64,000 nucleotides of DNA from IMG/VR virus record IMGVR_UViG_3300013102_000030, positions 1-64,000 of that record. The stretch is one strand, 5' to 3'. The notes beneath the pieces are model-generated. The model had not been told where the DNA came from and ran no database searches. It saw nothing but the letters and a program-made list of their open reading frames with translations. Position 1 is the first letter of the stretch, and each line of letters begins with the position of its first letter. Origin of the DNA: a virus. This document shows, one piece after another, positions 125-12,755 of this stretch. A program made the translations under genes and the position numbers.

Positions 125-463
125 ATGGCAGTCACACGTTTGTGGGAAGTCGAGAAGAAGGACCGTCGCAAGTTTCAGGGAGCGTACCGACGCGGCTGGA
201 ACTACTCGGACAACACCGACATCCCGAACCATCAGGGACTGGACGGGAACCCGGACTCCGGTATCCTGTACTGGGGCTGGGAGGATGGCTATCTGGACCG
301 TGCCGCTGACCGTGAGTACGGGCACATGATGCAGGAGCACGACCACAACAACCCGGACGAATGCCAAGCCGTAGAAGATCGGCTGCATGCCGCTTGGCTG
401 GCTACCGTGGAGAAGACTCCCGTCGCTCGTCAGGAAGTCGTAGGCGAGTTCAAAGATAAGTAA
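125..463 (+). CDS. hypothetical early protein
   Basis: ORF 92..463; SD AGGAGG before ATG125. Confidence 0.8.
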   Translation: MAVTRLWEVEKKDRRKFQGAYRRGWNYSDNTDIPNHQGLDGNPDSGILYWGWEDGYLDRAADREYGHMMQEHDHNNPDECQAVEDRLHAAWLATVEKTPVARQEVVGEFKDK

Positions 464-512
464 AAGTTGTAAGGGCTGGCCGGTTGACGGCTGGCCCTTA
501 CTGCTATAGACT
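462..512 (+). promoter_or_regulatory. Cassette element (degenerate box, hairpin, promoter)
   Basis: TAAGGGCTGGCCG/CGGCTGGCCCTTA stem; TTGACG-17-TAGACT. Confidence 0.85.
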
Positions 513-541
513 TTGAATACCGAACCAACTAGGAGGAAATC

Positions 542-772
542 ATGTTCAAGAAAATCCTGACCACCACACACCACAACGGTGTGACCACCGAGGATGTTGT
601 GGAGACCGTTGGCCCTGATCATGTCGAAGCGGACATTGCCGCAGAGATTCGGAACCTGCGTCCGATGACGCGGACGTACGGAAGGATTGCTCACGTGGAG
701 AAGACCATGACCACGTTGGTCATCGTCTACACGTCCGGTACCGTGGAGATCTTCCGGTGGGTGGCTGAATAA
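542..772 (+). CDS. hypothetical early protein
   Basis: ORF with AGGAGG SD after promoter. Confidence 0.8.
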   Translation: MFKKILTTTHHNGVTTEDVVETVGPDHVEADIAAEIRNLRPMTRTYGRIAHVEKTMTTLVIVYTSGTVEIFRWVAE

Positions 773-993
773 TGTCAGCACTGAAGCGCATGGTGGCGCG
801 GCTCGATGGCCGGAACAAGCGCACGTCTGCCGGATTCGTTACCACTACAGCGGAACTGGCGAAGATCCTGCCGGAACTCTCCAAGCTGGTATCCGTGTCC
901 GTCATCGAGAAGGAGCGGTATCCGTATCCGGTTGCCAATGAGATCGACATCGAAATCAAATTCAGCTTGACACTGGAGCGGGACAAGCTGTAA
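772..993 (+). CDS. hypothetical protein
   Basis: TAATG stop/start coupling. Confidence 0.7.
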   Translation: MSALKRMVARLDGRNKRTSAGFVTTTAELAKILPELSKLVSVSVIEKERYPYPVANEIDIEIKFSLTLERDKL

Positions 994-996
994 GCT
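963..996 (+). promoter_or_regulatory. Hairpin promoter without box, inside 3' end of upstream gene
   Basis: CAGCTTG/CAAGCTG stem; TTGACA-18-TAAGCT. Confidence 0.7.
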
Positions 997-1030
997 GGTT
1001 CTACCAACAACAACCGTCCTAGGAGGACAA

Positions 1031-1366
1031 ATGCCGCAGACTCTGAATGACATCATCGATCTCTCCATCCAGCCGGAGCTTGACTTCAGCAAGATTGAGG
1101 CGTACGGTTGTCGTATGGCGGGATGCCAGACCGATGGCATCACCATCAACCGCGCAACGGAGTACGTTCTCCGGATCGGTGGTTACCAGCGGAGGGTTTA
1201 CAACTGGGAGCAGTCCGGTGGCAACTCCCGGATGTACGTCAAGACGGGTTGGGGAGAGCGTTCTTTCCTCCCGGAGGAAGCTGTTACGCTTCTGACCTAC
1301 GGCAAGCCGGAGTACGGTACGCTGAAACTCGTGGCACATTCCGTGCAGGTTGCGGATGCCGCTTAG
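1031..1366 (+). CDS. hypothetical early protein
   Basis: ORF; GTCCTAGGAGGAC SD. Confidence 0.8.
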   Translation: MPQTLNDIIDLSIQPELDFSKIEAYGCRMAGCQTDGITINRATEYVLRIGGYQRRVYNWEQSGGNSRMYVKTGWGERSFLPEEAVTLLTYGKPEYGTLKLVAHSVQVADAA

Positions 1367-1378
1367 CTCTGATACTGT
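1350..1378 (+). promoter_or_regulatory. Promoter
   Basis: TTGCGG-17-TACTGT, similar to 63-91. Confidence 0.6.
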
Positions 1379-1405
1379 TTGACTACCAACAACACAGGAG
1401 GAACC

Positions 1406-1693
1406 ATGAGCCAGTCGCACGAAACGATCGAACTGAACATCGAGACCATCCTCACTCTGGACGACCAGAACGAGCCGCAGGCCATCACCGTTTCCGGTAC
1501 CGGGAACATCCCGCGTTCGGCAGTCCGTGCCATTGCGGAGGAAGCGCTGGAGTCCTTCACCGGAAAGGTCTTGCACGAGTACCGTGTGCAGATGTCTCCC
1601 GTTGAGGAATCGGAAGAGGGAACCGTCTTCGAGATCTACAAGAAGCTGACTTTCGGAACCCGTCCACGGGCACCAATGAGCGCTGCGGAGTAG
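1406..1693 (+). CDS. hypothetical early protein
   Basis: ORF 1379..1693; AGGAGG before ATG1406. Confidence 0.8.
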   Translation: MSQSHETIELNIETILTLDDQNEPQAITVSGTGNIPRSAVRAIAEEALESFTGKVLHEYRVQMSPVEESEEGTVFEIYKKLTFGTRPRAPMSAAE

Positions 1694-1701
1694 CTGCCGC
1701 A

Positions 1702-1758
1702 GTTACAAAACTTTCAAAAGGGATCGGGCTTGCGGCTCGGTCCCTTTTGCTGTAGTCT
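1702..1758 (+). promoter_or_regulatory. Cassette element
   Basis: GTTACAAAACTTTC; 15-bp stem; TTGCGG-17-TAGTCT. Confidence 0.9.
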
Positions 1759-1788
1759 TTGATTACCAACAACGGCTAGGAGGCCACC

Positions 1789-2073
1789 GTGAGCGACAAC
1801 TACAACATCAAGATCCAGCGCAAAGACGGCTTTACCCTTCAGGCAGTCCAGAACGTGAGCATCAACACAGCGTGGCGTATCCTGCCGTGGCTCATTGAGG
1901 ATCTGGTTATGCGCGGTGAGGGTAGCGATCCGTCTGCAACCTTGGAGCACATTGCATGCCGTGATGCGGTACGCGATCACTTTGTCCAGCATCCGCACAT
2001 CTGGTTCAACCAGTTGGCAGATACCGGATACGTCTCCCTGTTTGACCTGAGCATCACCATGGACCACAGCTAG
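1789..2073 (+). CDS. hypothetical early protein
   Basis: GTG start with AGGAGG. Confidence 0.8.
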   Translation: MSDNYNIKIQRKDGFTLQAVQNVSINTAWRILPWLIEDLVMRGEGSDPSATLEHIACRDAVRDHFVQHPHIWFNQLADTGYVSLFDLSITMDHS

Positions 2074-2129
2074 TTACAAAACTTTCCTACGGGAGGGAAG
2101 TTGCATCTACGGCTTCCCTCCTGTAGTCT
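2073..2129 (+). promoter_or_regulatory. Cassette element
   Basis: box fused to TAG stop; hairpin; TTGCAT-17-TAGTCT. Confidence 0.9.
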
Positions 2130-2164
2130 TTGATAACCAACCCAAACCGTCCTAGGAGGACAGC

Positions 2165-2668
2165 ATGACCACCTTTTCAGATGACAGCAGCGTTGACGAG
2201 CAGATCGAAAACGTGTACGCACAGGCTACGGATCTCTTCGATCCGGGCACGGTTCTGGACATCGACAACGACGAGTACGCTCGCGGTGTGGTGGAGTTGG
2301 TGACTCGGCTCCTTGGCATGGATGACAAGGAAGATGTTGCGGACATCATCACGGAAAAGCTCAAGCGTCCTGTACCGGAAGACAAGGACATCACGTGGAC
2401 GGATCTTGAACTCCGTCCTAACGGAGAGTTCTACATCGAGCGGCTGAAGGCTTCCACGTCGGAATACTGGCCGTTCCGCGTGGAGCGGTACGATGACATG
2501 GGAGCATGGCGCTTGATCGATGGCACATCGGATGTGCCGATGGCGATCATCCGTCCCGGAACTCAGCACGAATCGTGGCGCGTTACCGTCAACGGCTACG
2601 CGCAGGTCAAGCCGTTTACCAACCTCAAGGCTGCTGTGATCTACGCAGTCGGAGAGTTCAACGGCTGA
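2165..2668 (+). CDS. hypothetical early protein
   Basis: ORF with SD. Confidence 0.8.
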   Translation: MTTFSDDSSVDEQIENVYAQATDLFDPGTVLDIDNDEYARGVVELVTRLLGMDDKEDVADIITEKLKRPVPEDKDITWTDLELRPNGEFYIERLKASTSEYWPFRVERYDDMGAWRLIDGTSDVPMAIIRPGTQHESWRVTVNGYAQVKPFTNLKAAVIYAVGEFNG

Positions 2669-2724
2669 TTACAAAACTTTCTTACAGGGCAGGAGTTGCA
2701 ACAGCGGCTCCTGTCCTGTAGTCT
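2669..2724 (+). promoter_or_regulatory. Cassette element
   Basis: box after TGA; 17-bp stem; TTGCAA-17-TAGTCT. Confidence 0.9.
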
Positions 2725-2755
2725 TTGAGTACCAACCAAGCCGTAGGAGGCAACA

Positions 2756-3226
2756 GTGAAAGACTTTGACATCCGCCGCAAGTTCGTAGGAACCACCGCA
2801 GACGGTGAGCGCGTTTACTTGGATGCTCGCCTTATCTCCTTCACGGGAAGCGAGACCCAGACGGTGGACCACGTGAAGATCACGGAAGGTCAGCGGTTCA
2901 GCATCTCCGGACAGTGTGGACCGGAAGCCACCGGATCGTTTGGGCAGATCGTGGACGATGTCCGCAGGATCACCAAACCGGCAGAGGGTTTGAAGCTGTC
3001 GGATCTCGCGGATCTCGTGGAGATCTGGGAGACCTACCACCTGAACGACATGAAAGCTCTCTGTGAGCATCAGACAGTCAAATGGGAGTACAGCCGTGGT
3101 TACAAGAGCATGGATCTCGCTGGGATCGGTCCTTGCCCTGTCACTGGTTACCGTCCCGGCTCGCTGTGGCTTTACAAGCCGGTTCCGGATTCGGTACTCG
3201 CTCGCGTGCTGGAGATCCTGAGCTAG
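2756..3226 (+). CDS. hypothetical early protein (HLNDM..C.HQ / CP..GY..G motifs, possibly metal-binding)
   Basis: GTG start with SD; Cys/His motifs. Confidence 0.8.
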   Translation: MKDFDIRRKFVGTTADGERVYLDARLISFTGSETQTVDHVKITEGQRFSISGQCGPEATGSFGQIVDDVRRITKPAEGLKLSDLADLVEIWETYHLNDMKALCEHQTVKWEYSRGYKSMDLAGIGPCPVTGYRPGSLWLYKPVPDSVLARVLEILS

Positions 3227-3280
3227 TTACTAAAGTTTCTTAGGAGCGGAGTTGCAATAGCGGCTCCGCTCCTATAGACT
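3226..3280 (+). promoter_or_regulatory. Cassette element
   Basis: GTTACTAAAGTTTC; hairpin; TTGCAA-17-TAGACT. Confidence 0.9.
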
Positions 3281-3308
3281 TTGAGAACCAACCGAACAGG
3301 AGGCCACA

Positions 3309-3524
3309 ATGGCTAAGTTTGTAACCACGATTCCCAACACTCCCTTTCAGCAGCGGATGGCACGCGGCCACCGAATCCGCAACGGGCACGAGTTGGCAGC
3401 GTTGCATGTCAGCGACGATGGGATTCTGTGGCACAAGGTTCGCACGTGCTGTGGTGAGCAGATCCCGGAAACCGTAGAGACGTGGGAGCAGCACACTCCT
3501 ACTCCGGATCGTCCGCAGTTGTAA
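3309..3524 (+). CDS. hypothetical early protein
   Basis: ORF with SD. Confidence 0.75.
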   Translation: MAKFVTTIPNTPFQQRMARGHRIRNGHELAALHVSDDGILWHKVRTCCGEQIPETVETWEQHTPTPDRPQL

Positions 3525-3572
3525 AAGTTTCTTAGGGTAGGAGTTGCAACCGTGACTCCTACCCTGTAAGCT
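3518..3572 (+). promoter_or_regulatory. Cassette element
   Basis: GTTGTAAAAGTTTC containing the stop; hairpin; TTGCAA-17-TAAGCT. Confidence 0.9.
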
Positions 3573-3602
3573 GGTTCTACCAACAAAGCCTAGGAGGGCA
3601 AG

Positions 3603-4073
3603 ATGTCACGGTTTGAAACCGAAGAGGGACGGATCGAAGCAGCTAAGGAAGCTGGACGGAACGTCGCACGGCATGAGATCAAGGATGGCTACGATGAGCC
3701 GCGCAACTGGGATCGGGACGGAGTCCACAACGCGGGAGCGTTTAGCCACCTGTCAGCGGTTGGATTCTCCCGGCTGGGATCTCGGATGTACTCCCAAACC
3801 TTCATCGATGCATACAAGCATGAGTTTGAAAGCCTCTCCAAGGATGTCCCGGAGATCTCCGGAGAGGACGCGCTCGCAACGCTGGAAGGCATGCTAGCGG
3901 CAGAGATCCGCAACGCTGACCAGCTTTCTTACAAGCTCGCAAAAGAGCGAGAGGAATACAAGAAAGATCCGTCGGCGGATACAAAAGCCATCCGCGACAT
4001 GACAGAGATCCGCTACAACAAGGCGGTTCTGAAGAAGCAGGCGCTGAATTTCGCCATTCAGCAGATCCGCTAG
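3603..4073 (+). CDS. hypothetical early protein, helical C-terminus
   Basis: ORF with SD. Confidence 0.8.
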   Translation: MSRFETEEGRIEAAKEAGRNVARHEIKDGYDEPRNWDRDGVHNAGAFSHLSAVGFSRLGSRMYSQTFIDAYKHEFESLSKDVPEISGEDALATLEGMLAAEIRNADQLSYKLAKEREEYKKDPSADTKAIRDMTEIRYNKAVLKKQALNFAIQQIR

Positions 4074-4075
4074 CA

Positions 4076-4132
4076 GTTACAAAACTTTCTTTTAGGAGCG
4101 GAGTTGCATCCGTGACTCCGCTCCTATAGTCT
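4076..4132 (+). promoter_or_regulatory. Cassette element
   Basis: box; hairpin; TTGCAT-17-TAGTCT. Confidence 0.9.
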
Positions 4133-4177
4133 TTACTTATCGGAGCAACCGGCTCCCCTTAGTCCTAGGAGGACAAA

Positions 4178-4501
4178 ATGTCTGAACTCGCTCACCTTCT
4201 CGCTGGTTCCGTTTCGGATGCCAAGGTCACTGAAGCACCAGCCCAGCGGAGCGCAACAGGCTACGGTAGGAAGCTTCCTACTCCCTACATGGTTCGGATC
4301 TCCAACCGCTGGCACCGCGTTTACGTGATGAACTACGGCAACGCTGGTTCTTCCTACGTCGTGATCAACGGCAAAGAGCATTTCCTCTCTCCCGGAGCGG
4401 AGTTGATCGTTGAGACGGTTCGGGACGGCGGAACCGCTCAGGATGCCATCCAGCAGCTTCAGGCATGGCCGGACATCTTCCGTATGGAGGAAGGTCTCTA
4501 A
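4178..4501 (+). CDS. hypothetical early protein (GYG.KLPT.YMV...W.RVY motif)
   Basis: ORF with SD. Confidence 0.8.
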   Translation: MSELAHLLAGSVSDAKVTEAPAQRSATGYGRKLPTPYMVRISNRWHRVYVMNYGNAGSSYVVINGKEHFLSPGAELIVETVRDGGTAQDAIQQLQAWPDIFRMEEGL

Positions 4502-4503
4502 GA

Positions 4504-4559
4504 CTTACAAAAGTTTCCTACCGTAGGGAGTTGCATCCCGTAGCTCCCTACGGTACGCT
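4504..4559 (+). promoter_or_regulatory. Cassette element
   Basis: CTTACAAAAGTTTC; 16-bp stem; TTGCAT-17-TACGCT. Confidence 0.9.
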
Positions 4560-4596
4560 TGATTCATCAGCACAACGAAAGACTTTAGGAGTCGAA

Positions 4597-4839
4597 ATGA
4601 ACAAGAAGACCGCTAGCATCGTCCTTGCAGAGGTTCAGAACTTCGTGGGAGTTACGGAAGGATATTCCGCTCCGCAACTCATGGACAACGACCATGAGGG
4701 ACTTTCGGAAGGTTCATGGTCCATCTGCTTTGAAGGTGGCGGAAACGTGGAGGATTGGGCGCTTCACTTCCGGACAAAGGTTCCCGGAGTTTTCGTTGAA
4801 CCGATCAGTAGCTGCATTCTTGGAGTGCATGACGCGTAG
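4597..4839 (+). CDS. hypothetical early protein
   Basis: within ORF 4465..4839; AGGAG before ATG4597. Confidence 0.8.
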   Translation: MNKKTASIVLAEVQNFVGVTEGYSAPQLMDNDHEGLSEGSWSICFEGGGNVEDWALHFRTKVPGVFVEPISSCILGVHDA

Positions 4840-4848
4840 TCGATGTTT

Positions 4849-4890
4849 TCTGGTTCTGGGATTGACAACCGATCCCAGAGCCGGGATGCT
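4849..4890 (+). promoter_or_regulatory. Hairpin promoter, box degenerate
   Basis: CTGGTTCTGGGAT/ATCCCAGAGCCGG stem; TTGACA-17-GATGCT. Confidence 0.75.
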
Positions 4891-4924
4891 TTTACTACCA
4901 CAAAGCTAGTCCTAGGAGGACACA

Positions 4925-5269
4925 ATGACTGTAGTTCACACTCGCAAGGTTCACGCTGTGAAGCAGGTTCCTTACTCCAACCGGTACGATGTGGAGATGG
5001 TTGGAGGTCCGCTGAACTTCCCGCAGGTTGTTTCTGATGTGGAGGTTTTCAGCAAGTACGTAGGCGGTGGCCGGAGCGTGTGCACAATCCGAGTTCCCAT
5101 GAAAAAGCTTCAGGGAGTCCCGGACTTTCCGTCTCTGACCTCCCGGCAAATGGACGGGATCGCAAAGCGGATCGATGGCCGGTACCGTCTCCAGTACTCC
5201 CAGAGTGGCACGGATTCGGTAGGCCAGCCGGTTTACCTGCGTTCCTACGCATTCAACGCAAACGACTAG
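4925..5269 (+). CDS. hypothetical early protein
   Basis: ORF with SD. Confidence 0.8.
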   Translation: MTVVHTRKVHAVKQVPYSNRYDVEMVGGPLNFPQVVSDVEVFSKYVGGGRSVCTIRVPMKKLQGVPDFPSLTSRQMDGIAKRIDGRYRLQYSQSGTDSVGQPVYLRSYAFNAND

Positions 5270-5280
5270 GAGATCCAGCC

Positions 5281-5550
5281 ATGAGAGCAGAACTCAAGAC
5301 GCGCACGGACACGGTAAAGACTCCCGTAGGGAACGTGCAAGTCAGGCGGTACAGCGCACGCGGTAGCCTCCGTGGAGTCTTCCTAGAGGGCAGGGAGCTA
5401 GGCGAGATCCAAGGGCAAGGGAGGTTTGTCCTAGTCAAGCCGCACAGACGCTACGGGCAGCAGTGGAGGGCAGCTAGCTACGCTGAAGGCATCCGGCAGC
5501 TAGTCAACATTGACGCTCTGGACCATGGGAAAGACAAGGTCTTTCCGTAG
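5281..5550 (+). CDS. hypothetical basic protein
   Basis: within ORF 5080..5550; AGGAG before ATG5281. Confidence 0.75.
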   Translation: MRAELKTRTDTVKTPVGNVQVRRYSARGSLRGVFLEGRELGEIQGQGRFVLVKPHRRYGQQWRAASYAEGIRQLVNIDALDHGKDKVFP

Positions 5551-5605
5551 TTACAAAACTTTCTTAGGAGTAGGGAGTTGCAAAAGCTCCCTACTCTGAT
5601 AGTCT
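5550..5605 (+). promoter_or_regulatory. Cassette element
   Basis: box fused to TAG; hairpin; TTGCAA-16-TAGTCT. Confidence 0.88.
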
Positions 5606-5653
5606 TTACTTATCGCGGTTCGACCGGAGCCGCTGAAGTCCTAGGAGGACACA

Positions 5654-6034
5654 ATGACTGATCACGGATTCATCTCCCTTGGCAAGTTCTCATCCGCACG
5701 GGATTCGATCCTTCACTGGTTGGCAGGTGTGGAGTGGTGCAATGCATCCTCCGGACACGTTGAGGCTCCTACGGGATGGTTTGCCAAGATCTCTTTTCTT
5801 CCGGCAGAGATCCACATCCCAAACACTGAAATCACTTCCGTTCTGGAAGAATGGTTTCAGGATAATCCGGAGGTTACGGACTCTCCGGAACTCCGGAAGG
5901 AACTGGAGGGTTTTTTCATCGTCCGGGAGAACGAACAGGGTTTCGTGTCCGTGGAAGTGTTCCCTACGGAGGCAGCTATGAATGTTGCCTACGGAGCGTT
6001 GGAGGATGCTTTCTCTGAATGGGACGGCGAATAG
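5654..6034 (+). CDS. hypothetical acidic early protein
   Basis: ORF with SD. Confidence 0.8.
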   Translation: MTDHGFISLGKFSSARDSILHWLAGVEWCNASSGHVEAPTGWFAKISFLPAEIHIPNTEITSVLEEWFQDNPEVTDSPELRKELEGFFIVRENEQGFVSVEVFPTEAAMNVAYGALEDAFSEWDGE

Positions 6035-6090
6035 TTACAAAACTTTCTTACCGGCTGGGAATTGCAAGAGCGGTTCCCAGCCTGTAAGGT
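6034..6090 (+). promoter_or_regulatory. Cassette element
   Basis: box fused to TAG; hairpin; TTGCAA-17-TAAGGT. Confidence 0.9.
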
Positions 6091-6126
6091 AGGAACTACC
6101 AACAACCGATGTTCCTAGGAGGAACG

Positions 6127-6477
6127 ATGTACCAGCCGCGTACGCAGTCCAGCAAGTTTCGCAATGAGGATTGCCCTGCTGATGTTCTAGCCATCTATGA
6201 CAACGGCGGAAAGTCCTTTGATCGGTTCACAGTCTTCTATAAGCCTGTTGAGCCTCTGAAGGATCTTAGGGGATGGATTGGCTATCGTGGGATGTCAGAG
6301 CGTCCCAGCAGTCCGCAGGGTTTCGGCATCTATGATGAGATGGAAGCCTACAAGGTAGCACAGTACCGGAACAGGGTTTACCGGGAATCCTTCCAATGGT
6401 CAAAGCTTCCGGAGGAAGTGAAGAGCGTAGTTCGCGCCGATTGTGCGGACATCGTGGAAGCTCGCAAGCAGAAGTAA
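6127..6477 (+). CDS. hypothetical early protein (YDNGG.S.DR.TV...PQGFG motif)
   Basis: ORF 6109..6477; SD before ATG6127. Confidence 0.8.
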   Translation: MYQPRTQSSKFRNEDCPADVLAIYDNGGKSFDRFTVFYKPVEPLKDLRGWIGYRGMSERPSSPQGFGIYDEMEAYKVAQYRNRVYRESFQWSKLPEEVKSVVRADCADIVEARKQK

Positions 6478-6484
6478 GCATTTC

Positions 6485-6512
6485 GGAAGGGGAGCAAACC
6501 GGCTCCCCTTCC
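6485..6512 (+). other. Intergenic hairpin without promoter
   Basis: GGAAGGGGAGC/GCTCCCCTTCC. Confidence 0.6.
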
Positions 6513-6539
6513 TCCCTAACAAGTCCTGAGGAGGACAAA

Positions 6540-6749
6540 ATGGATTACTGGATCAATAAGCGCGGTTTCTCTCTGGTTGGCACTACGGAAGCCGGAGTCT
6601 TTCTAGCTCGGAAGGAACGGGAACGGAAGTTCCTGCTAGTCCGTGAAGACTGGTTCACGGGAGAGCTTCGGCAGTTTACTCCCATAGTCCGAACGGAAGC
6701 GGAAGCGCTTTCCTACCTGTCCAACTCTTCTACCCTTGCAACCGCTTAG
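6540..6749 (+). CDS. hypothetical protein
   Basis: within ORF 6396..6749; GAGGAGG before ATG6540. Confidence 0.75.
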   Translation: MDYWINKRGFSLVGTTEAGVFLARKERERKFLLVREDWFTGELRQFTPIVRTEAEALSYLSNSSTLATA

Positions 6750-6758
6750 GAGCCTGCT

Positions 6759-7052
6759 GTGAAGTCTGTAATAACCTCTCTGGAGCCGAACCGCGAAGAC
6801 GCTACGTTGGGTCTCACTCCCTACGCTGTGACCATCAAAGGATCTCCGGAACCACGCGTCAAGATCGTGGAATCGCGGGACATCACAACGGGCAAGGCTA
6901 CGGTGCGAATCATAGCCATGGCAGCGGCTGGGATGCCTGTCCTAGCGCTTCCCACGCTGGACCAGATCGCTAGGCGGATCTTGCCCGGAGCACGCGTTAC
7001 AGCGCGGCTGCATGGCTCCGCAGCGTTTACTAGGGTTTACGCAGCGGACTAG
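6759..7052 (+). CDS. hypothetical protein
   Basis: GTG start with AGGAG. Confidence 0.75.
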   Translation: MKSVITSLEPNREDATLGLTPYAVTIKGSPEPRVKIVESRDITTGKATVRIIAMAAAGMPVLALPTLDQIARRILPGARVTARLHGSAAFTRVYAAD

Positions 7053-7062
7053 ATCCACAGGA

Positions 7063-7119
7063 CTTACAAAAGTTTCATAACTTCAGGAGTTGCGCCTAAC
7101 GGTGTGACTCCTGTAGTCT
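7063..7119 (+). promoter_or_regulatory. Cassette element
   Basis: box; hairpin; TTGCGC-18-TAGTCT. Confidence 0.88.
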
Positions 7120-7163
7120 TTCTATATCGGTTCAAGGGGAACCGCAGAGCTTAGGAGTTACAA

Positions 7164-7475
7164 ATGTTCGGACACGTTCAGACCACGTTCAATCGCTCGG
7201 AAGTTGAAACGCTGTGCGAGAAGCTGACAGCGGCAGCGGTAGCGCTGGAAATGCTGGCAGAGGATGACAAGATCCTGTTTCATCCCGGATCTACCACCAA
7301 CGGACATGCTCCGGCTTTGAGCGTCTTCAACGCTAACGCGGAAGGTCACCGGAAGGTTGTACGCGTTGATTGGCTCCCTGATTTCAAGATCGGAGACAGC
7401 CGGAACACTGTTGGCCGGATCTTGTCCCCTCTCGTCGTTGGCATGACTGCGGCAGCGGACTTCCTGAATCCGTAG
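7164..7475 (+). CDS. hypothetical early protein
   Basis: ORF with SD. Confidence 0.8.
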   Translation: MFGHVQTTFNRSEVETLCEKLTAAAVALEMLAEDDKILFHPGSTTNGHAPALSVFNANAEGHRKVVRVDWLPDFKIGDSRNTVGRILSPLVVGMTAAADFLNP

Positions 7476-7531
7476 TTACAAAACTTTCCCAGTGTGGCGG
7501 ATTAGGAAATAGTCCGCCACACTGGTAACGT
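7475..7531 (+). promoter_or_regulatory. Cassette element
   Basis: box fused to TAG; 16-bp stem; TAGGAA-17-TAACGT. Confidence 0.85.
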
Positions 7532-7569
7532 AGTACTTACCAAACCGCTTGAAGTTCCTAGGAGGAACA

Positions 7570-7947
7570 ATGAAACTGCATTCCGACAAACTGACCACCG
7601 CTGAAATCCGCGCATGCTTGGAGCGTGCCATTGCTAAGGGCAGGGTTTCGCGTCTGGTGGACTTCTCCGAATTGGCAGAGCGTGGGAGCCGTACGCGTGC
7701 TAACGCGTGGGAGATCCGGCTTGAATGGCTGGGAACGAAAGAAAAGGGAGATGGCCGGAAGTGGACTAACTCCGGTACGCGTGGCAGCGGAGAGGCTGCA
7801 AGCGGTGGCTACGCTGCATTCTGGGATGAGTGGGGCTGGTTCATCTGGGAACTGTACGCGGTAGACTCCGAATTGGTATTCGGACACTACAAAACCGAAA
7901 CGGAGTTTCACGAGATGACTCGTTTCAAGTTCGCGGTGGCTGAGTAG
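7570..7947 (+). CDS. hypothetical early protein
   Basis: ORF 7549..7947; SD before ATG7570. Confidence 0.8.
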   Translation: MKLHSDKLTTAEIRACLERAIAKGRVSRLVDFSELAERGSRTRANAWEIRLEWLGTKEKGDGRKWTNSGTRGSGEAASGGYAAFWDEWGWFIWELYAVDSELVFGHYKTETEFHEMTRFKFAVAE

Positions 7948-8003
7948 TTACAAAACTTTGTTACGGGAGCGGAGTTGCTTAGGTGGCTCCGCTCCTGTAG
8001 TCT
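7947..8003 (+). promoter_or_regulatory. Cassette element
   Basis: box fused to TAG; hairpin; TTGCTT-17-TAGTCT. Confidence 0.9.
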
Positions 8004-8050
8004 TTCTATATCGGTTCAGAGGGAACCGAAAAGCTGACTTAGGAGTCACA

Positions 8051-8458
8051 ATGTCTGAAGGTAAGCAGGTCACAGCGGAAAACCTCAACTCTGTAATGGA
8101 GTTTGATCACGTGCTGCACATTGCTAACGGGATCGCTGAGGATGTCGCGGAATCCTTCTACTTTGAGGTTACCCAGTTCAAACTGGAAGATGGCCGCTGG
8201 GAAACCGAATACATCCTTCCTGAAGGCTGGCAGGTCATGCGTGGCTACACAGGGCAGCATGGCTACAATGGTCCGGACATGCATAACTCTGAGTTCATCG
8301 GCGGTGGCATGGCTAGGGACATTCTGGAGGCTCCCGGCCTGTATGTTGCCCTTGCCATCTCCGCTAGCTGTGGAGGCTTGGAAGATGGCTGTGCAGAAGA
8401 TGACTGCACCTGTGAGGGTGAGGGTTGGGTAGTAGCTTACAAGCTTGACGGCGAGTAG
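8051..8458 (+). CDS. hypothetical early protein (GYTGQ.GY.G..MH.SEFIGG motif)
   Basis: ORF 7958..8458; AGGAG before ATG8051. Confidence 0.8.
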   Translation: MSEGKQVTAENLNSVMEFDHVLHIANGIAEDVAESFYFEVTQFKLEDGRWETEYILPEGWQVMRGYTGQHGYNGPDMHNSEFIGGGMARDILEAPGLYVALAISASCGGLEDGCAEDDCTCEGEGWVVAYKLDGE

Positions 8459-8516
8459 TTACAAAAGTTTCTTAGGAAGGTCCGGAGTTGTAATGACTCC
8501 GGATCTCCTATAGTCT
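8458..8516 (+). promoter_or_regulatory. Cassette element
   Basis: box fused to TAG; hairpin; TTGTAA-17-TAGTCT. Confidence 0.9.
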
Positions 8517-8553
8517 TTACTTATCGGAACAATCCGCTAACTTAGGAGTCAAG

Positions 8554-8886
8554 ATGACTTACGAAATTACCACGTTTGAGCAGTACAACCCTTTCTCCCG
8601 TGTGGCTGATCGTAGCGTGCTGGTGATCGCTGATGAGCACGTGCGTAACTTCCTCTCTCACCTTCCGGAGGAAGCGCAGGAGATCATCCTAGAGGAAGCG
8701 GAGTGCAACGGTGGCACGCGTTTTGTGGGCAAGGATGGCAAGTACAACCACATCAAAAAGCGGATCTCATACGCGGATCTCCGGACTCCTACGGCAGCGG
8801 AGGAAGACGCAGAGTTTGAGGCTCGCCGGATGGCTGTAGAAGACCGGGAAGACCGGGAAGCGTTGCGCGGACGCTGCGGCGACTAA
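8554..8886 (+). CDS. hypothetical early protein
   Basis: ORF with SD. Confidence 0.8.
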   Translation: MTYEITTFEQYNPFSRVADRSVLVIADEHVRNFLSHLPEEAQEIILEEAECNGGTRFVGKDGKYNHIKKRISYADLRTPTAAEEDAEFEARRMAVEDREDREALRGRCGD

Positions 8887-8941
8887 TTACAAAACTTTGT
8901 TACGGCTGGGAGTTGCGCGGATGGCTCCCAGCCTGTAAGTT
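8887..8941 (+). promoter_or_regulatory. Cassette element
   Basis: box after TAA; hairpin; TTGCGC-17-TAAGTT. Confidence 0.9.
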
Positions 8942-8988
8942 TGACTTATCGGTTCAAGGGGAACCGATGAAAGACTTTAGGAGTCAAG

Positions 8989-9468
8989 ATGAGCAAGCTG
9001 GAAATCGGATCGCTGGTCAACGTTGAACTGCTGGCAGCAGGTTGGCACGGAGCGGAAGTTACCGGAGTCTCTGAGGATGGCAAGCTGTACAGCGTGAAGC
9101 TGCTGGAAGCTTCCGATGGCTACGAAGTAGGGCAGGAGCTTGGAGGCTTCCATGTAGATCCTACGGCTGATTACTTTGGAGATGCTGAGGCTCCCAACAT
9201 CAAAGCTGCTGAGGTTTACATCATGCGAGCGGATCGCACTCCGGAGATGTCATGGTGGCAGGCAGGGGAGAGCATCGGAGTTAGCCACTCTGCTAAGTCT
9301 CTTCCGGCCGCTGTAGGCTCCCTGCTGACCTGCTGGGAGGTAGAAGGACGTAGGAGCCGTGGAGAGCACACGGAGACTCCAGAGGCTGCGGCAGCGCTGC
9401 TGACAGGTGGCAGGTACTGGAGCGCTGACAAGCTGGTGACCTACTGGTTCCGGTTCACTGGTCAGTAA
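8989..9468 (+). CDS. hypothetical early protein, possible SH3/Tudor-like N-terminus
   Basis: LEIGSLVNV...W.GAEVTGV....YSVKL pattern. Confidence 0.75.
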   Translation: MSKLEIGSLVNVELLAAGWHGAEVTGVSEDGKLYSVKLLEASDGYEVGQELGGFHVDPTADYFGDAEAPNIKAAEVYIMRADRTPEMSWWQAGESIGVSHSAKSLPAAVGSLLTCWEVEGRRSRGEHTETPEAAAALLTGGRYWSADKLVTYWFRFTGQ

Positions 9469-9525
9469 CTTACAAAAATTTCATAGGGAGTGGGAGTTGC
9501 AATGTGGCTCCCACTCCTATAGTCT
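9469..9525 (+). promoter_or_regulatory. Cassette element
   Basis: CTTACAAAAATTTC; hairpin; TTGCAA-17-TAGTCT. Confidence 0.9.
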
Positions 9526-9571
9526 TTCTATATCGGATCAAGAGATCCGGAAAACAACTTAGGAGATTCAA

Positions 9572-9844
9572 ATGTCTGAAGCAGCAAACCGTGGCGGCGT
9601 TACCCTTACCGGCGCAGCGATTGACTTCTTTTTCATCCGCCGGATCGTCACCGCGTACGAGATGGAAGATCGCGGGATGCGTATGAATCGCGGACCTTCT
9701 GCCCTTCAGCAGACTAAGATGCTGGGATTGGTTCCGGAAAACTCCCGGAGCAAGAAAGCCGGATTGCGTGCGGTGGTTGCCAAGGTTCAGGAGATGATGC
9801 CGAGCTACGAACCTAACGATAACGTGAAGCGGCTCATGGCATAG
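9572..9844 (+). CDS. hypothetical early protein
   Basis: ORF with SD. Confidence 0.8.
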   Translation: MSEAANRGGVTLTGAAIDFFFIRRIVTAYEMEDRGMRMNRGPSALQQTKMLGLVPENSRSKKAGLRAVVAKVQEMMPSYEPNDNVKRLMA

Positions 9845-9849
9845 AGTCA

Positions 9850-9888
9850 GCAGGGAGAGGGACCGGGAAACCGGTCCTTTTCTTTTGC
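9850..9888 (+). terminator. Intrinsic terminator
   Basis: GGACCGG-GAAA-CCGGTCC then T-tract. Confidence 0.85.
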
Positions 9889-9894
9889 CCGTGA

Positions 9895-9942
9895 CTTACA
9901 AAACTTTCTTAGGTTGCGCGGTGGCAGGATCTCCTATAGTCT
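9895..9942 (+). promoter_or_regulatory. Box + promoter without hairpin
   Basis: CTTACAAAACTTTC; TTGCGC-17-TAGTCT. Confidence 0.8.
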
Positions 9943-9986
9943 TTAGGTAGTTAGTTGATAATCCAATAGCGAGAAAAGAGCAGGTC

Positions 9987-10358
9987 ATGGCAACATCCAA
10001 GGAAACCCTGAAGATTGCAGTCAAGATCATGAAGCGGATTCGGCGCTCGTGGGAGATGTACGAAGACGAATGTGCGGAGTACGCAAAGCAAGGCTACCGG
10101 CCTCACTACTGTTTCCACGGTGTGGACCAGTGGACGGACTACGACAACATCTGTGGATGGTGTGAGGAAGTAGGCAACGGCTGGGATTATGTGCAAGCGC
10201 TGAAGCAAGCGCTGGCAGAGGCTGAGGCAGCAGTTGAAGCCAAGCAGAAGCGCGTGGATCTCCTGATCACGGTACAGGTCCAGAAGATGCCTGTAGAGGA
10301 TTGGGGAAAGCTGCTTGAGTGGGCGCATGAGCCACTAGCCAAGTATGACGAATTGTAA
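9987..10358 (+). CDS. hypothetical protein with CxHG/CxxC possible Zn site
   Basis: ORF; YCFHG...ICGWCE. Confidence 0.8.
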   Translation: MATSKETLKIAVKIMKRIRRSWEMYEDECAEYAKQGYRPHYCFHGVDQWTDYDNICGWCEEVGNGWDYVQALKQALAEAEAAVEAKQKRVDLLITVQVQKMPVEDWGKLLEWAHEPLAKYDEL

Positions 10359-10363
10359 GAGAT

Positions 10364-10400
10364 AGGGAGTCAGCCTAACGGTTGGCTCCCTTTTCTTTTT
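10364..10400 (+). terminator. Terminator ending the + array
   Basis: AGGGAGTCAGCC-TAAC-GGTTGGCTCCCT + T-tract. Confidence 0.85.
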
Positions 10401-10550
10401 GCCCTGCGGCTGGTGGTTGGCTGCGGATCTCTGTTGCCTGCCCTGCGCGGCTGTGTGAGCCTCTGAGAGCCTGTTAGGTGGCTGGTGGTGTGGTTGTGCC
10501 TGCGCGTGATTCTGAGCGCTTAGAGAGGCTTCTAGAGGTCCTGCGCTGGG

Positions 10551-10590
10551 ACAAAAGAAATCCCGCTAGCCTGTTGGCTGCGGGATCTCT
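10551..10590 (-). terminator. Terminator ending the - array
   Basis: reverse complement ATCCCGCAGCC..GGCTAGCGGGAT-TTCTTTT. Confidence 0.75.
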
Positions 10591-10606
10591 GGGAGAGGCT
10601 AGAAGG

Positions 10607-10792
10607 CTACTGTGGCAGCGGAAAATCATTGATGCTGCCAACTACCACTAGAGCGGCTGCTAGGAGCGCTGTGGAGGCTGGAGAGGCTTTGAACCGCTGC
10701 CCTGCGCGTCGTGCGCGGATCTCAATACGATCTAGCGCGGTTTCGCGTGCTGCGTGGTCACGTGCTGCGCTGCGTTCTGCTGCTGTCATCAT
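10607..10792 (-). CDS. small protein with hydrophobic C-terminus
   Basis: AGGAG SD directly after a box at 10806-10819. Confidence 0.65.
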   Translation of the reverse strand: MMTAAERSAARDHAARETALDRIEIRARRAGQRFKASPASTALLAAALVVVGSINDFPLPQ

Positions 10793-10868
10793 TGCGGGAT
10801 CTCCTGAAAGTTTTGTAAGTGAGAGGAAGTGAAAGACTCCGGAGCCTTTCGACTCCGGAGCCTTCAGT

Positions 10869-11081
10869 CTAGCGGATGAAACGGACTTCAGACTCTAGGA
10901 CATTGAACGTGTCTCCGGAGGGAATCGCGGTGACTTCCAGAGTGTAGCGTCCCTGCCACGGCTGGCCGTACTCATCAACGCGAAGCTCTCCGGCTGCGGA
11001 CTCCGGAAGTCCCGTGAGAGGGAAGCTAGCGGCGTGGATCTGGACAACGTCACCGATTTTGTAGCTGCGTGCCTTGTTCAT
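10869..11081 (-). CDS. hypothetical SH3-like small protein
   Basis: ORF 10869..11120; AGGAGG before ATG11081. Confidence 0.75.
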   Translation of the reverse strand: MNKARSYKIGDVVQIHAASFPLTGLPESAAGELRVDEYGQPWQGRYTLEVTAIPSGDTFNVLESEVRFIR

Positions 11082-11110
11082 TTTTCCTCCTGAGTGGTTG
11101 GTACCCTCTG

Positions 11111-11166
11111 AGCTTAGCAAAGATCCGGACCTGTTGCCAAGTCCGGACCTTTGTAAGTTTTGTAAC
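11111..11166 (-). promoter_or_regulatory. Cassette element (minus strand)
   Basis: GTTACAAAACTTAC fused to TAG; hairpin; TTGGCA-18-TAAGCT. Confidence 0.85.
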
Positions 11167-11621
11167 TAGATGCTGCTGGTGCTGATGCCGTATGAGGTTT
11201 TGAAAGCGCGAACCGCGAAGTCAGCATTAGGCGTGCGCTGGTTGGTTCCGGCTGCGTAGGTGATCATGTCCCAGATCTGACCTTCACGATGGGCAGGGAC
11301 CACGTTGTAAACGAATCCGGAGTACTTCCGGGAGAGTTCCGTTTCGATCTCTTGCAGTTCTTCCTGCTGGGCTGCGTAGGCTGCGAGATCGGCAGCGGTG
11401 CGCGTTGCGTAGTCGATGGCATCCCGGACGTTGTTACCGTCCCGGATGATGGATTCGAAGATCTCATCAGCGTTAGCTGAGTCGATCAGGGAGAGAGTGG
11501 AGCGAAGCGCAGTTTCGATCTGCCCGTAAACTCCTGCCTGCGGAGCAGTGACTTCCATGGCGTTTGCTGAGAGGCGAGCGGCGTCCAGAGCTTCAGCGAG
11601 TGCGATCAGCTTGTCATCCAT
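11166..11621 (-). CDS. hypothetical early protein
   Basis: ORF with TAGGAG SD. Confidence 0.8.
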   Translation of the reverse strand: MDDKLIALAEALDAARLSANAMEVTAPQAGVYGQIETALRSTLSLIDSANADEIFESIIRDGNNVRDAIDYATRTAADLAAYAAQQEELQEIETELSRKYSGFVYNVVPAHREGQIWDMITYAAGTNQRTPNADFAVRAFKTSYGISTSSI

Positions 11622-11660
11622 TGTGACTCCTAGGTTGGTGCGATTGGTTGGTACAAAGAA

Positions 11661-11717
11661 AGACTATCGGTTCCGGGACCTGTTGGCAAGTCCCGGAACC
11701 TAGGGAACTTTTGTAAC
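11661..11717 (-). promoter_or_regulatory. Cassette element (minus strand)
   Basis: GTTACAAAAGTTC; hairpin; TTGCCA-17-TAGTCT. Confidence 0.9.
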
Positions 11718-11926
11718 TAGAAGATGTGGTTCAGGAGATCCGCAAATTCTTCGTCCGTTGCGTGAATCCATTCCGGCTCCGCTGCCATGCATCCGCTGCA
11801 ATAGTCCGTAGGCTGCGGCCCACGCGTTACAGTCTCGCCTGAAGTGTAAACGTCATCCTGTCCGGAGTGTTCACAGAGGGAATCGTTGCTGTCAGTCTTC
11901 CAGTGGCGTGCAACTCGCTGTGCCAT
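11717..11926 (-). CDS. small Cys/His protein, possible Zn-binding
   Basis: H...SLC...YCSGC; GAGGA SD. Confidence 0.75.
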   Translation of the reverse strand: MAQRVARHWKTDSNDSLCEHSGQDDVYTSGETVTRGPQPTDYCSGCMAAEPEWIHATDEEFADLLNHIF

Positions 11927-11965
11927 GTCTTCCTCTCGCGGTTGATACTTTCAACCTCTGAGACG

Positions 11966-12021
11966 ATTCTAGGGCAGGATCTCCTGATGTGGCAAATCCT
12001 GCCCTAGAAAAGTTTTGTAAC
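11966..12021 (-). promoter_or_regulatory. Cassette element (minus strand)
   Basis: GTTACAAAACTTTT; 16-bp stem; TTGCCA-18-TAGAAT. Confidence 0.88.
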
Positions 12022-12755
12022 TAGTTCGCTGCGGCTGCTGGTTCCGTTGTGACCACCGTTTCCGGCTTGGCTACGTTTGGCGCTGGTTCCGGCTGCTGCT
12101 TGCCAATCTGGCAGAACGTGCCAACTCCTGCCCACGCGTCTCCCAGTTCAAGGCTTGAGCAGATCTCTGCTTGAGTCTTGACGAAAACGTACTGATACGT
12201 GGGATTGATCACAGACCTAACCGCACGGTAGCCATCAGCTACGGGACCGACAGGAGCTAACGTGACGTAGGTATTGGCGAACGTCCCGCGATCCGTGAGA
12301 CCTGAGAGCGCATAGGCTTCCTCAAGTCCGCAAATACGGTTTCCCATCAGCGCACAATCCCAACGCGGATCATCCTCCGGAGTGATCTCCTGCTGTGGTT
12401 CCGTGGTGGCAGGAGCCTCTACGGTGGCCGGTACGGTGGCAGGATCTTCTACCGTGGCAGGAGCCTCAACGGTGGGAACTTCCGTTGCAACTGGAGCAGT
12501 GTATGACAGTTCCGGCTGCGGTTCCGATACGGTTTCGGAGACGGGCTGTGTGGTCTCCTGCGGCTGCGGTTCCGTGGCTGCGGTAGTCGATACGGTGGGA
12601 GCGTCCCACGCTGGCAGGATGGCATCCTGAGAGGCTGAGACAGAGGTCTCTGCTACGGGCAGGATCTCCGCTTCCTGTGGCTGCTGTGCTGTGGCTGCGG
12701 TTGTAGTGGTCAGGGCAAGGGCAAGGATTGCGAGAGGTGCAAGGATGCGTTTCAT
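12021..12755 (-). CDS. exported protein: signal peptide, P/T/E-rich linker, EDDP.WDC..MGN..CG motif
   Basis: MKRILAPLAILALAL...ATA; AAGGAG SD. Confidence 0.8.
   Translation of the reverse strand: MKRILAPLAILALALTTTTAATAQQPQEAEILPVAETSVSASQDAILPAWDAPTVSTTAATEPQPQETTQPVSETVSEPQPELSYTAPVATEVPTVEAPATVEDPATVPATVEAPATTEPQQEITPEDDPRWDCALMGNRICGLEEAYALSGLTDRGTFANTYVTLAPVGPVADGYRAVRSVINPTYQYVFVKTQAEICSSLELGDAWAGVGTFCQIGKQQPEPAPNVAKPETVVTTEPAAAAN

Follow-up and report, generated by a model that had tools for sequence, protein, structure and literature searches.

The first 13 kb of this phage genome form an array of single-gene cassettes, in which the same compact signal recurs between some 20 small genes. 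The window analysed here (64,000 nt) is the left end of a 174-kb large Arthrobacter-type phage, which has a tail with a 1918-aa tape measure protein at its core and whose relatives are the Arthrobacter globiformis phages Atuin, Racecar, Mimi and Talia1610. The signal consists of a host-type promoter and an RNA hairpin that encloses its -35 box, and 19 such intergenic hairpin units were located between positions 465 and 12020, 16 on the plus strand and three on the minus strand (Table 1).

Architecture of the units

An AT-rich 13-nt box, TTACAAAACTTTC, is sharply conserved 3' of the upstream stop codon, which lies 0-12 nt 5' of it, and is followed after about 25-28 bp by the -35 element. The promoter consensus comprises a -35 of TTGCAA, a fixed 17-bp spacer (16-18) and a -10 of TAGTCT. 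The pattern TTGnnn, 16-18 bp spacer, TAnnnT was present in 18 of the 19 hairpin units as well as in unit 9896, a constant geometry that confirms the fixed -35 of the preliminary description. The invariant columns are T and G of TTG and T, A and T of TA...T, which, as judged from the motif, are the bases recognised by the primary sigma factor; a phage RNA polymerase or sigma factor was looked for in the phage and none was found. The hairpin starts 14-17 nt past the stop codon, and its 3' arm occupies the spacer and terminates in the TA(G) of the -10. The arm is directly followed by TAGTCTTT in 10 of the 19 hairpin units and by TAGACTTT in two others, in agreement with the earlier observation that it fills the spacer and often precedes GTCTTT. 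On the downstream side, a leader and an AGGAGG Shine-Dalgarno site precede the start codon of a small gene. The hairpin is kept where the -35 has been lost (unit 7476), and the full promoter is kept where the hairpin has been lost (9896).

Table 1. Hairpin units, hairpin-less promoter and canonical terminators of the array (window coordinates; the first column gives the box or first-base position by which units are named).
Unit	Feature	Span	Strand	Hairpin	-35	-10	Remarks
468	unit without clean box	465-512	+	465-505	TTGACG 484-489	TAGACT 507-512	z -7.3
1703	unit	1703-1758	+	1715-1749	TTGCGG 1730-1735	TAGTCT 1753-1758	box 1703-1715
2074	unit with box	2074-2129	+	2087-2126	TTGCAT 2101-2106	TAGTCT 2124-2129	
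2669	unit with box	2669-2724	+	2682-2721	TTGCAA 2696-2701	TAGTCT 2719-2724	18 bp, 4 G·U
3227	unit with box	3227-3280	+	3238-3278	TTGCAA 3252-3257	TAGACT 3275-3280	box TTACTAAAGTTTC
3519	unit with degenerate box	3519-3572	+	3533-3566	TTGCAA 3544-3549	TAAGCT 3567-3572	
4077	unit with box	4077-4132	+	4093-4126	TTGCAT 4104-4109	TAGTCT 4127-4132	
4505	unit with box	4505-4559	+	4519-4555	TTGCAT 4531-4536	TACGCT 4554-4559	
	box-less hairpin	4848-4892	+		TTGACA in loop		then TGCTTTTAC; sequence reading; probably one more composite unit
5551	unit with box	5551-5605	+	5567-5597 (core)	TTGCAA 5578-5583	TAGTCT 5600-5605	spacer 16 bp
6035	unit with box	6035-6090	+	6047-6088	TTGCAA 6062-6067	TAAGGT 6085-6090	
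7064	unit with box	7064-7119	+	7080-7117	TTGCGC 7090-7095	TAGTCT 7114-7119	spacer 18 bp
7476	unit with box, without -35	7476-7531	+	7489-7525			TAGGAA in loop; z -8.8
7948	unit with box	7948-8003	+	7961-8000	TTGCTT 7975-7980	TAGTCT 7998-8003	5 G·U
8459	unit with box	8459-8516	+	8473-8510	TTGTAA 8488-8493	TAGTCT 8511-8516	
8887	unit with box	8887-8941	+	8900-8938	TTGCGC 8913-8918	TAAGTT 8936-8941	
9470	unit with box	9470-9525	+	9486-9518	TTGCAA 9497-9502	TAGTCT 9520-9525	
	canonical terminator	9860-9886	+				GC stem 7 bp, GAAA loop, then TTTTCTTTT; score +20
9896	promoter with box, hairpin absent	9896-9942	+		TTGCGC 9914-9919	TAGTCT 9937-9942	box 9896-9908; spacer 17 bp; z +0.68
	canonical terminator ending plus-strand array	10364-10400	+				stem 12 bp, then TTTTCTTTTT; score +30
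11165	unit	11111-11165	-	11157-11113	TTGGCA 11140-11135	TAAGCT 11116-11111	box 11165-11153; z -9.6
11716	unit with box	11661-11716	-	11700-11669	TTGCCA 11689-11684	TAGTCT 11666-11661	
12020	unit with box	11966-12020	-	12008-11968	TTGCCA 11995-11990	TAGAAT 11971-11966	

Pairing is maintained while sequence changes

Each hairpin of the 19 units comprises 13-20 bp with a folding energy of -23 to -32 kcal/mol; z-scores ranged from -4.0 to -9.6, and 0 of 200 dinucleotide shuffles folded equally well. The mean fold energy was -26.3 kcal/mol for cognate arms compared with -13.1 kcal/mol for non-cognate arm combinations, and the cognate 3' arm was the best partner in 15 of 19 units. Among the eight units that share a common register, 97% of cells pair and six pairs change on both sides, which was matched by 0 of 500 shuffles, with slid controls pairing at 36-49%. 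When 45 rows from three phages were placed in a model-fitted alignment, 95% of cells paired and both sides had changed in 17 of 18 pairs (31-54% pairing in slid controls). The preliminary description had noted that the arms differ between copies while their pairing is kept; the three arm pairs that it quoted were exact, and the arms covary beyond chance. RNAalifold, which it had put forward as a check, detected nothing on a plain MAFFT alignment of the copies because the loop register shifts between them, and the covariation came instead from the register-matched and model-fitted alignments. An Rfam covariance-model search returned as its only match a chance-level ctRNA at a canonical terminator (E = 0.08).

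The same unit design, with different stems, was found in Racecar, Mimi, Talia1610 and Atuin. When the syntenic stems of Racecar were compared with those of Mimi/Talia1610, to which it is 95-97% identical, three compensatory double changes were seen where about 0.05 were expected, together with six changes between Watson-Crick and G·U pairs and none between Watson-Crick and A·C. Homologues in Atuin or Racecar were detected for only about 11 of the 31 array ORFs, in a different gene order, and the ends of a one-gene indel that separates Racecar from Mimi lie in the box and in the leader. Genes are thus shuffled at the units, which may double as recombination seams for gene swapping since boxes, -10s and leaders are common to them.

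Wobble pairs follow the direction of transcription

Wobbles were counted with a helix finder that scores G·T and A·C alike. The ratio of G·T to A·C on the coding strand was 38:1, or 35:1 (p ~1e-9) without one double-counted hairpin, and amounted to 48:2 in Racecar and 17:0 in ten box-linked Atuin units. As the minus-strand units, read in their own sense, contain 11 G·T and 0 A·C, it is the direction of transcription, rather than the genome strand, that the bias tracks. Roughly half of the wobbles occur where the TT of the -35 pairs with GG of the spacer, and some 16 are located elsewhere in the stems, so that the earlier description of mismatches as mostly coding-strand G-T, often at this TT, was accurate. 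Such G·U wobbles would preserve an RNA stem while disrupting a DNA palindrome.

Embedded hairpins and canonical terminators are mutually exclusive

Of five promoters with a canonical terminator (hairpin plus T-run) ahead of them, none had an embedded hairpin, compared with 41 of 50 lacking such a terminator (Fisher p = 5.8e-4; instances in three phages). These counts point to a functional equivalence of the embedded hairpins with known terminators, as expected of elements that take the same position and can replace each other. The separate terminator and hairpin-less promoter that had been noted at 9850-9942 were both recovered (Table 1). Two further promoters, at about 967-1000 and 1358-1390 inside the ends of upstream ORFs, have no hairpin though a gene runs into them.

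The tail that follows the stem contains 1-5 U in 8 nt. At least three U in the 8 nt past a stem of about -23 kcal/mol or stronger were found in 15 of the 19 hairpins, a combination that constitutes the lowest read-through class in Streptomyces Term-seq (PMC8269248). The U-tracts of the embedded hairpins are short and weak, with at most three U after the stem in units 3519, 4505, 6035, 7476 and 11165. On an E. coli-type terminator score, the embedded hairpins reached -44 to +4.6, whereas the array's two canonical terminators scored +20 and +30. Atuin units end in CUAGACUAGAG. Since the hairpin-less promoter 9896 retains GTCTTT as well, this motif may belong to the promoter instead of forming a U-tract.

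Proposed function of the junctions

Given the wobble bias, the compensatory changes between relatives and the exclusivity with canonical terminators, the hairpin is predicted to act in the RNA of the upstream gene and not to be needed by the promoter. We consider it somewhat better than an even chance that each junction is a composite element, similar to the promoter-early stem-loops (PeSLs) discussed below, which is read twice, as a double-stranded DNA promoter and as an RNA hairpin that partially terminates the upstream gene. As double-stranded DNA, the unit would serve as a promoter for the primary sigma factor of the host through the consensus elements given above, and the box is probably an UP-like or factor-binding site. 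When a polymerase entering from the upstream gene transcribes the unit, the RNA copy of these bases would fold into the hairpin, followed by a short U-rich stretch, UCUUU, and this hairpin is most likely a partial intrinsic terminator (attenuator). The incoming polymerase would be released near the -10/+1 of the promoter that follows, the upstream mRNA would retain a stable 3' stem, and each gene would therefore be its own insulated unit. The preliminary description had proposed this dual use, as RNA terminator or 3' stabiliser and as promoter of the next gene, and it draws support from the wobble bias, the compensatory changes, the exclusivity, the invariant columns and the PeSL reporters. 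The structure, its covariation, the strand bias, the exclusivity and the gene shuffling are observed directly, whereas we infer that the units are active as promoters, that they terminate transcription and what part the box plays.

A less probable explanation, though one to be taken seriously, is that the hairpin acts at the RNA level without stopping polymerase. Long read-through transcripts would then carry stems that block 3'-to-5' exonucleases or are cut by an RNase III-type enzyme, resulting in stable messages of one gene each, comparable to those of the T7 early region. This would account equally well for the sense-strand G·U bias, the compensatory changes and the terminator exclusivity (canonical stems also cap 3' ends), and it fits both the length of the stems and their weak or absent U-tracts. 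However, RNase III substrates typically span roughly two helical turns, and the stems fall below this size. Nearly every gene, moreover, has its own promoter, which would be needless if long read-through RNAs prevailed, 15 of 19 units carry the U-containing tail described above, and PeSL stem-loops terminated transcription in reporters (PMC2839356).

It is very improbable that the structure forms in DNA, with a cruciform or single-strand hairpin switching the promoter in the manner of N4 early promoters or of a supercoiling sensor. The palindromes are long, and extrusion would hide the -35, which occupies either the stem top or the loop. The template strand, however, carries 2-5 A·C mismatches per stem and folds 3-10 kcal/mol more weakly, the wobble bias tracks gene direction, and promoters without a hairpin are otherwise complete, all of which disfavours the ssDNA/cruciform alternative raised in the preliminary description. 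Finally, protein-binding operators or selfish palindromes spread with the cassettes, without a part in expression, would fit repeated units at recombination seams and a box conserved near promoters in both orientations, but are highly unlikely given that arm sequences vary by unit with pairing kept, so that no single protein could read the stems, that selection maintains pairing between near-identical phages, and that a sense-strand wobble bias is unexpected for a DNA-binding site.

Comparison with known systems

As in the composite units, the early promoters of phage N4 coincide with sequences able to form a hairpin. N4 uses 5-7 bp DNA hairpins with a 3-nt loop on the template strand and needs a giant virion RNA polymerase, whereas the stems here are 13-20 bp long, their wobbles favour the non-template strand and leave A·C mismatches on the template, and the promoter is an ordinary -35/-10 promoter. 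No gene for such a polymerase was found, and an N4-type hairpin promoter was rejected; a search with PF00940 gave no match in the phage, nor in the control genomes, and the giant ORFs encode the tape measure, a tail protein and a helicase/ART protein. The early region of T7 has a few promoters at its start and then RNase III processing sites between genes. Hairpins between consecutive early genes leave a 3' stem on each message in both cases, but nearly every gene here has its own promoter superimposed on the hairpin.

Like actinobacterial terminators, the units place a strong GC-rich stem-loop just past the stop codon, with an A-tract 5' and a short U-rich stretch 3'. Term-seq in Streptomyces clavuligerus distinguished structured U-rich and U-lacking ('I-shaped') 3'-end classes (PMC8269248), and the threshold of that study, at least three U in 8 nt, was reached by the 15 of 19 units noted above. 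The difference is that stem and tail must here also spell a promoter, and the array-closing terminators of the phage itself have far better T-runs (TTTTCTTTT) than the embedded hairpins.

The closest likeness is to the PeSLs of the T4-type phages RB49/phi1, PST/T4 and nt-1/KVP40 (Arbiol et al. 2010, PMC2839356; Comeau et al. 2014, PMC4122927). In both, an upstream stop codon in an AT-rich stretch is followed by a host sigma70-type promoter whose -35, spacer or -10 is overlapped by a stem-loop containing G-T pairs, a Shine-Dalgarno site then leads into a small orphan gene, and the elements cluster in a hypervariable region where they mark gene gain and loss. The sequences are non-homologous, the host here being actinobacterial and the phage not T4-type; the stems are longer than the polyG/polyC stems of PeSLs; five classes of position are distinguished among PeSLs, whereas the stems here hardly vary in position and always surround the -35; and a conserved 13-nt upstream box replaces general AT-richness. 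Both terminator and promoter activity of PeSLs were seen with lacZ reporters (PMC2839356), whereas both activities of the present units are predicted from sequence. The cassette is not new in kind, but an actinophage version of the promoter/terminator cassettes of T4-like phages.

Genome Setting and Anatomy of the Units

The virus record is 174,136 bp long, of which bases 1-64000 form the window. Its first 13.4 kb carry about 31 small ORFs, 25 on the plus strand up to 10358 followed by 6 on the minus strand that converge on the plus-strand set, and beyond 13.4 kb lie the portal and capsid genes, a 1918-aa tape measure gene, tail genes, and a gene for a 2916-aa helicase/ADP-ribosyltransferase. 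A megablast search with a 12 kb query found no near-identical DNA among phage records; relatives were reached via the capsid protein, which is 82-86% identical to those of the Arthrobacter globiformis phages Atuin, Racecar, Mimi, and Talia1610, all with genomes of about 194 kb. No phage sigma factor was found by sigma70 region 2, and a search for T7-type RNA polymerase with PF00940 found none, a weak negative given that its control was also unmatched everywhere. An Rfam scan gave no match.

Nineteen units of about 55 bp were recognized, as a rule opening with an AT-rich box. The 12-mer TTACAAAANTTT occurs 24 times in the window at no more than one mismatch (0.37 expected), with nearly all copies inside 1-13.4 kb. 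The stop codon of the preceding gene lies 0-12 nt 5' of the box and the -35 (TTGCAA-like) 25-29 nt 3' of it, followed by a spacer of 17 bp (16 once, 18 three times) and a -10 that reads TAGTCT in 11 units and otherwise TAnnnT. Alignment of the 19 units leaves the TTG of the -35 and the TA...T of the -10 as the invariant columns, the positions that a primary sigma factor reads. One hairpin of 13-20 bp is present in every unit (19/19): the 5' arm begins just 3' of the box and extends into GGAGTTGC, the loop is 4 nt in most units, and the 3' arm fills the spacer, as the preliminary description had noticed, terminating in the TA(G) of the -10. The unit at 7476 has kept its box and hairpin and lost its -35.

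Of 43 units from three phages, 37 have the 13-nt form of the box, TTACAAAACTTTC (1703-12020 in the window), 25-28 nt 5' of the -35; spacings of 15-16 and 35-36 nt are rare and correspond to steps of about 10 bp. Inverted copies also occur at promoters. These placements suggest that the box may be a protein site on one helix face, either UP-like or bound by a factor. A role as the target of a trans-acting RNA was set aside, as the reverse complement occurs only beside other promoters.

Conservation of Pairing

Every hairpin folds better than expected by chance (z-scores of -4.0 to -9.6, with 0/200 shuffles folding equally well), the hairpin-less promoter at 9896 giving z = +0.68. That arm sequences differ between copies while pairing is kept, as originally claimed, was borne out by exchanging arms between units, which halved the stability (mean of -13.1 kcal/mol vs. 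-26.3 for cognate arms); the cognate arm was the best partner in 15 of the 19 units. As arm sequences vary from unit to unit, a reading of the inverted repeats as operators was rejected. In the eight units that share a common register, 97% of cells pair and six pairs have changed on both sides; none of 500 shuffles matched the observed pairing, and slid controls paired at 36-49%. A covariance model built from these eight recovered the remaining units of the window as well as units in Racecar and Atuin, and in the resulting 45-row alignment of three phages, which is fitted to structure and contains a few antisense matches, pairing holds in 95% of cells, and both sides vary in 17 of the 18 pairs. 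The in-register subset, the model-fitted alignment, and the arm swap took the place of RNAalifold; run on the 19 units as aligned by MAFFT alone, RNAalifold predicted no structure, because the loop register relative to the -35 shifts by 1-7 nt between units and not because pairing is absent.

Closer relatives were also compared. Between Racecar and its relatives Mimi and Talia1610, divergence is 3-5%, and their syntenic hairpins contain three compensatory double substitutions (CG>GC, GC>CG, TA>CG), against about 0.05 expected from a stem divergence of 2.2%. Six changes between Watson-Crick and G.U pairs were seen and none between Watson-Crick and A.C; of five other mismatches, three are direct neighbors at the loop-proximal end of a single stem. 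Hairpins whose loop contains TTGACA, with a -10 at 17 bp, are also found in Pumpernickel, a Microbacterium phage that is more distantly related (e.g., 7251, 9300).

Strand-Specific Wobble Bias

Mismatches had been described as mostly G-T on the coding strand, often at the TT of the -35, and both points held when wobbles were counted with a helix finder giving G.T and A.C equal scores. The G.T:A.C ratio was 38:1 in the window (35:1 once a hairpin found twice is removed) and 48:2 in Racecar. Atuin gave 17:0 over its ten box-linked units; the six A.C pairs counted in this phage belong to hairpins of opposite-strand genes or to hairpins within ORFs. Minus-strand units read in their own sense gave 11:0, and the bias therefore tracks transcription rather than the genome strand. 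The TT of the -35, paired with GG, accounts for about half of the wobbles, and about 16 fall elsewhere in the stems; the bias is still present in Racecar, where most -35 boxes lie in the loop. Folds of the sense strand exceed those of the antisense strand in stability by 3-10 kcal/mol.

Mutual Exclusion with Canonical Terminators

At 9850-9942 the preliminary description had pointed to a promoter without a hairpin where a separate terminator is present, and this layout proved to recur in relatives. At four Atuin sites, the stop codon is followed by a short GC stem and a T-run of about nine bases (e.g., TTTTTCTTT), then by the next box and a complete promoter with no embedded hairpin; three Racecar sites have the same layout, as judged by reading the sequence, unscored. 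Among box-linked promoters of the three phages, an embedded hairpin was found in 0 of 5 with a canonical terminator within 90 nt and in 41 of 50 without (Fisher p = 5.8e-4), several of the nine hairpin-less exceptions lying at divergent array starts or having a terminator further upstream. It follows from this exclusivity that the promoter does not need the hairpin and that, for the gene upstream, the hairpin probably takes the place of a terminator. As the box stays with the promoter, 3' of the canonical terminator, it is in all probability a promoter element.

After canonical terminators, all three phages have non-coding stretches of 100-200 bp rich in short repeated words (GCTGCGG, CTCTAAG, CAGCAGC, CTTACAG).

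Function of the Embedded Hairpin

With an E. coli-type terminator score, the embedded hairpins reached -44 to +4.6 and the two canonical terminators of the array +20 and +30. Fifteen of the 19 hairpins, however, combine a stem of about -23 kcal/mol or stronger with at least three U within the 8 nt that follow, and so belong to the class that was read through least in Streptomyces clavuligerus Term-seq (PMC8269248). The GTCTTT may be a promoter feature, because it is also kept in the hairpin-less promoter. We therefore read the embedded hairpin as a putative partial terminator (attenuator) that would also leave a protective 3' stem. The main rival is a purely post-transcriptional role for the hairpin.

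Far less probable, and in our view very unlikely as a whole, is that the overlap is a polymerase relay and not only a way of saving space. The hairpin would free the arriving polymerase right at the -10/+1 of the promoter that follows, where it would re-initiate without ever leaving the DNA, each cassette resetting the transcript and re-using the polymerase. G.U wobbles would be selected as giving a long RNA stem without a perfect DNA palindrome hiding the -35, and the 13-nt box, whose rarer positions are phased about one helical turn apart, would be a docking site for the alpha subunit or a polymerase-holding phage factor.

The single-stranded DNA or cruciform promoter switch put forward earlier is disfavored; the dual use proposed with it, as an RNA terminator or stabilizer and a DNA promoter, is supported by the wobble bias, the compensatory changes, and the exclusivity.

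Leaders and Other Sites

Two leader classes follow the -10. Seven units have leaders beginning TATCGG that fold into a 4-9 bp hairpin at the extreme 5' terminus of the predicted transcript, whose stems covary (CGGTTC/GAACCG, GGAGC/GCTCC, CGGATC/GATCCG) and which looks like a possible 5' stabilizer; the remaining leaders are short, unstructured, and CA-rich (TACCAAC...). Many Shine-Dalgarno sites lie within the small palindrome TCCTAGGAGGA, a possible 5-bp hairpin around AGGAGG. These and other sites are collected in the table.

Table. Positions of leaders, promoters, terminators, and related sites (window coordinates unless stated)
Feature	Position	Details
TATCGG leaders	4133-4177, 5606-5653, 7120-7163, 8004-8050, 8517-8553, 8942-8988, 9526-9571	
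Promoters within last codons of upstream ORF	967-1000; 1358-1390	TTGACA-18-TAAGCT; TTGCGG-17-TACTGT; stop codon inside -10 or spacer; no box, no strong hairpin
Box without -35 or -10	10793-10870 (-)	Box, then directly ribosome-binding site and start of 10607-10792 gene; hairpin of two GGCTCCGGAGTC copies 5' of box
Inverted box copies	50-61; 13361-13372	Directly 5' of + promoters at about 62-90 and about 13373-13401
Isolated composite units, outside window	145855-145900; 162089-162140 of the virus record	Far from array; one is a hairpin with TTGACG in loop, then TGTAAGCT; the other has TTGACA and TAAGCA
Shine-Dalgarno palindrome	e.g., 1017-1028, 2148-2159, 4163-4174	TCCTAGGAGGA
Canonical terminator, then promoter without embedded hairpin	9860-9942; Atuin 10349, 11522, 12587, 15583(-); Racecar 15721, 16504, 18831(-)	
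Repeated-word stretches	10400-10600; Atuin about 11990-12100, 15100-15250; Racecar about 15780-15870, 18890-18950	

Comparison with the PeSLs of T4-Type Phages

The promoter-early stem-loops (PeSLs) of T4-type phages consist of an upstream stop codon in an AT-rich region, a sigma70-like early promoter with a stem-loop, drawn with G-T pairs, between or overlapping the -35 and -10 boxes, and a downstream Shine-Dalgarno site and start codon, and are clustered among small orphan genes (PMC2839356; PMC4122927). In lowering lacZ expression, the PeSL stem-loop was about as effective as a strong terminator, and complete units were able to drive a reporter with no promoter of its own (PMC2839356). In sequence, the present units agree with this description at every point; what sets them apart is their lineage and host phylum, the length and fixed position of the stem, and the sharp conservation of the box. 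The role of PeSLs in gene shuffling is also mirrored: only about 11 of the 31 ORFs have homologues in Atuin or Racecar, in differing order, and Racecar gene 18 is missing from Mimi, with breakpoints at the box (left) and the leader/RBS (right) and a third, different hairpin at the Mimi site.

A literature search, itself incomplete, found no published description of such an element in actinophages. Together with the wobble bias and the exclusivity, the compensatory changes seen between phages of 95% identity provide a clean, testable case for dual selection on one DNA stretch, as a promoter in the duplex and as a stem in the RNA. Across the four related phages, which are cultured on a laboratory strain, there are about 70 natural stem variants, and the units are also natural 'terminator + promoter' parts for high-GC Gram-positive hosts. 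PeSL-type cassettes thereby extend beyond T4-like phages with Gram-negative hosts and reach large actinobacteriophages of Arthrobacter and, apparently, Microbacterium; their design therefore has the look of a general solution, arrived at convergently, to the packing and shuffling of early cassettes with one gene each.
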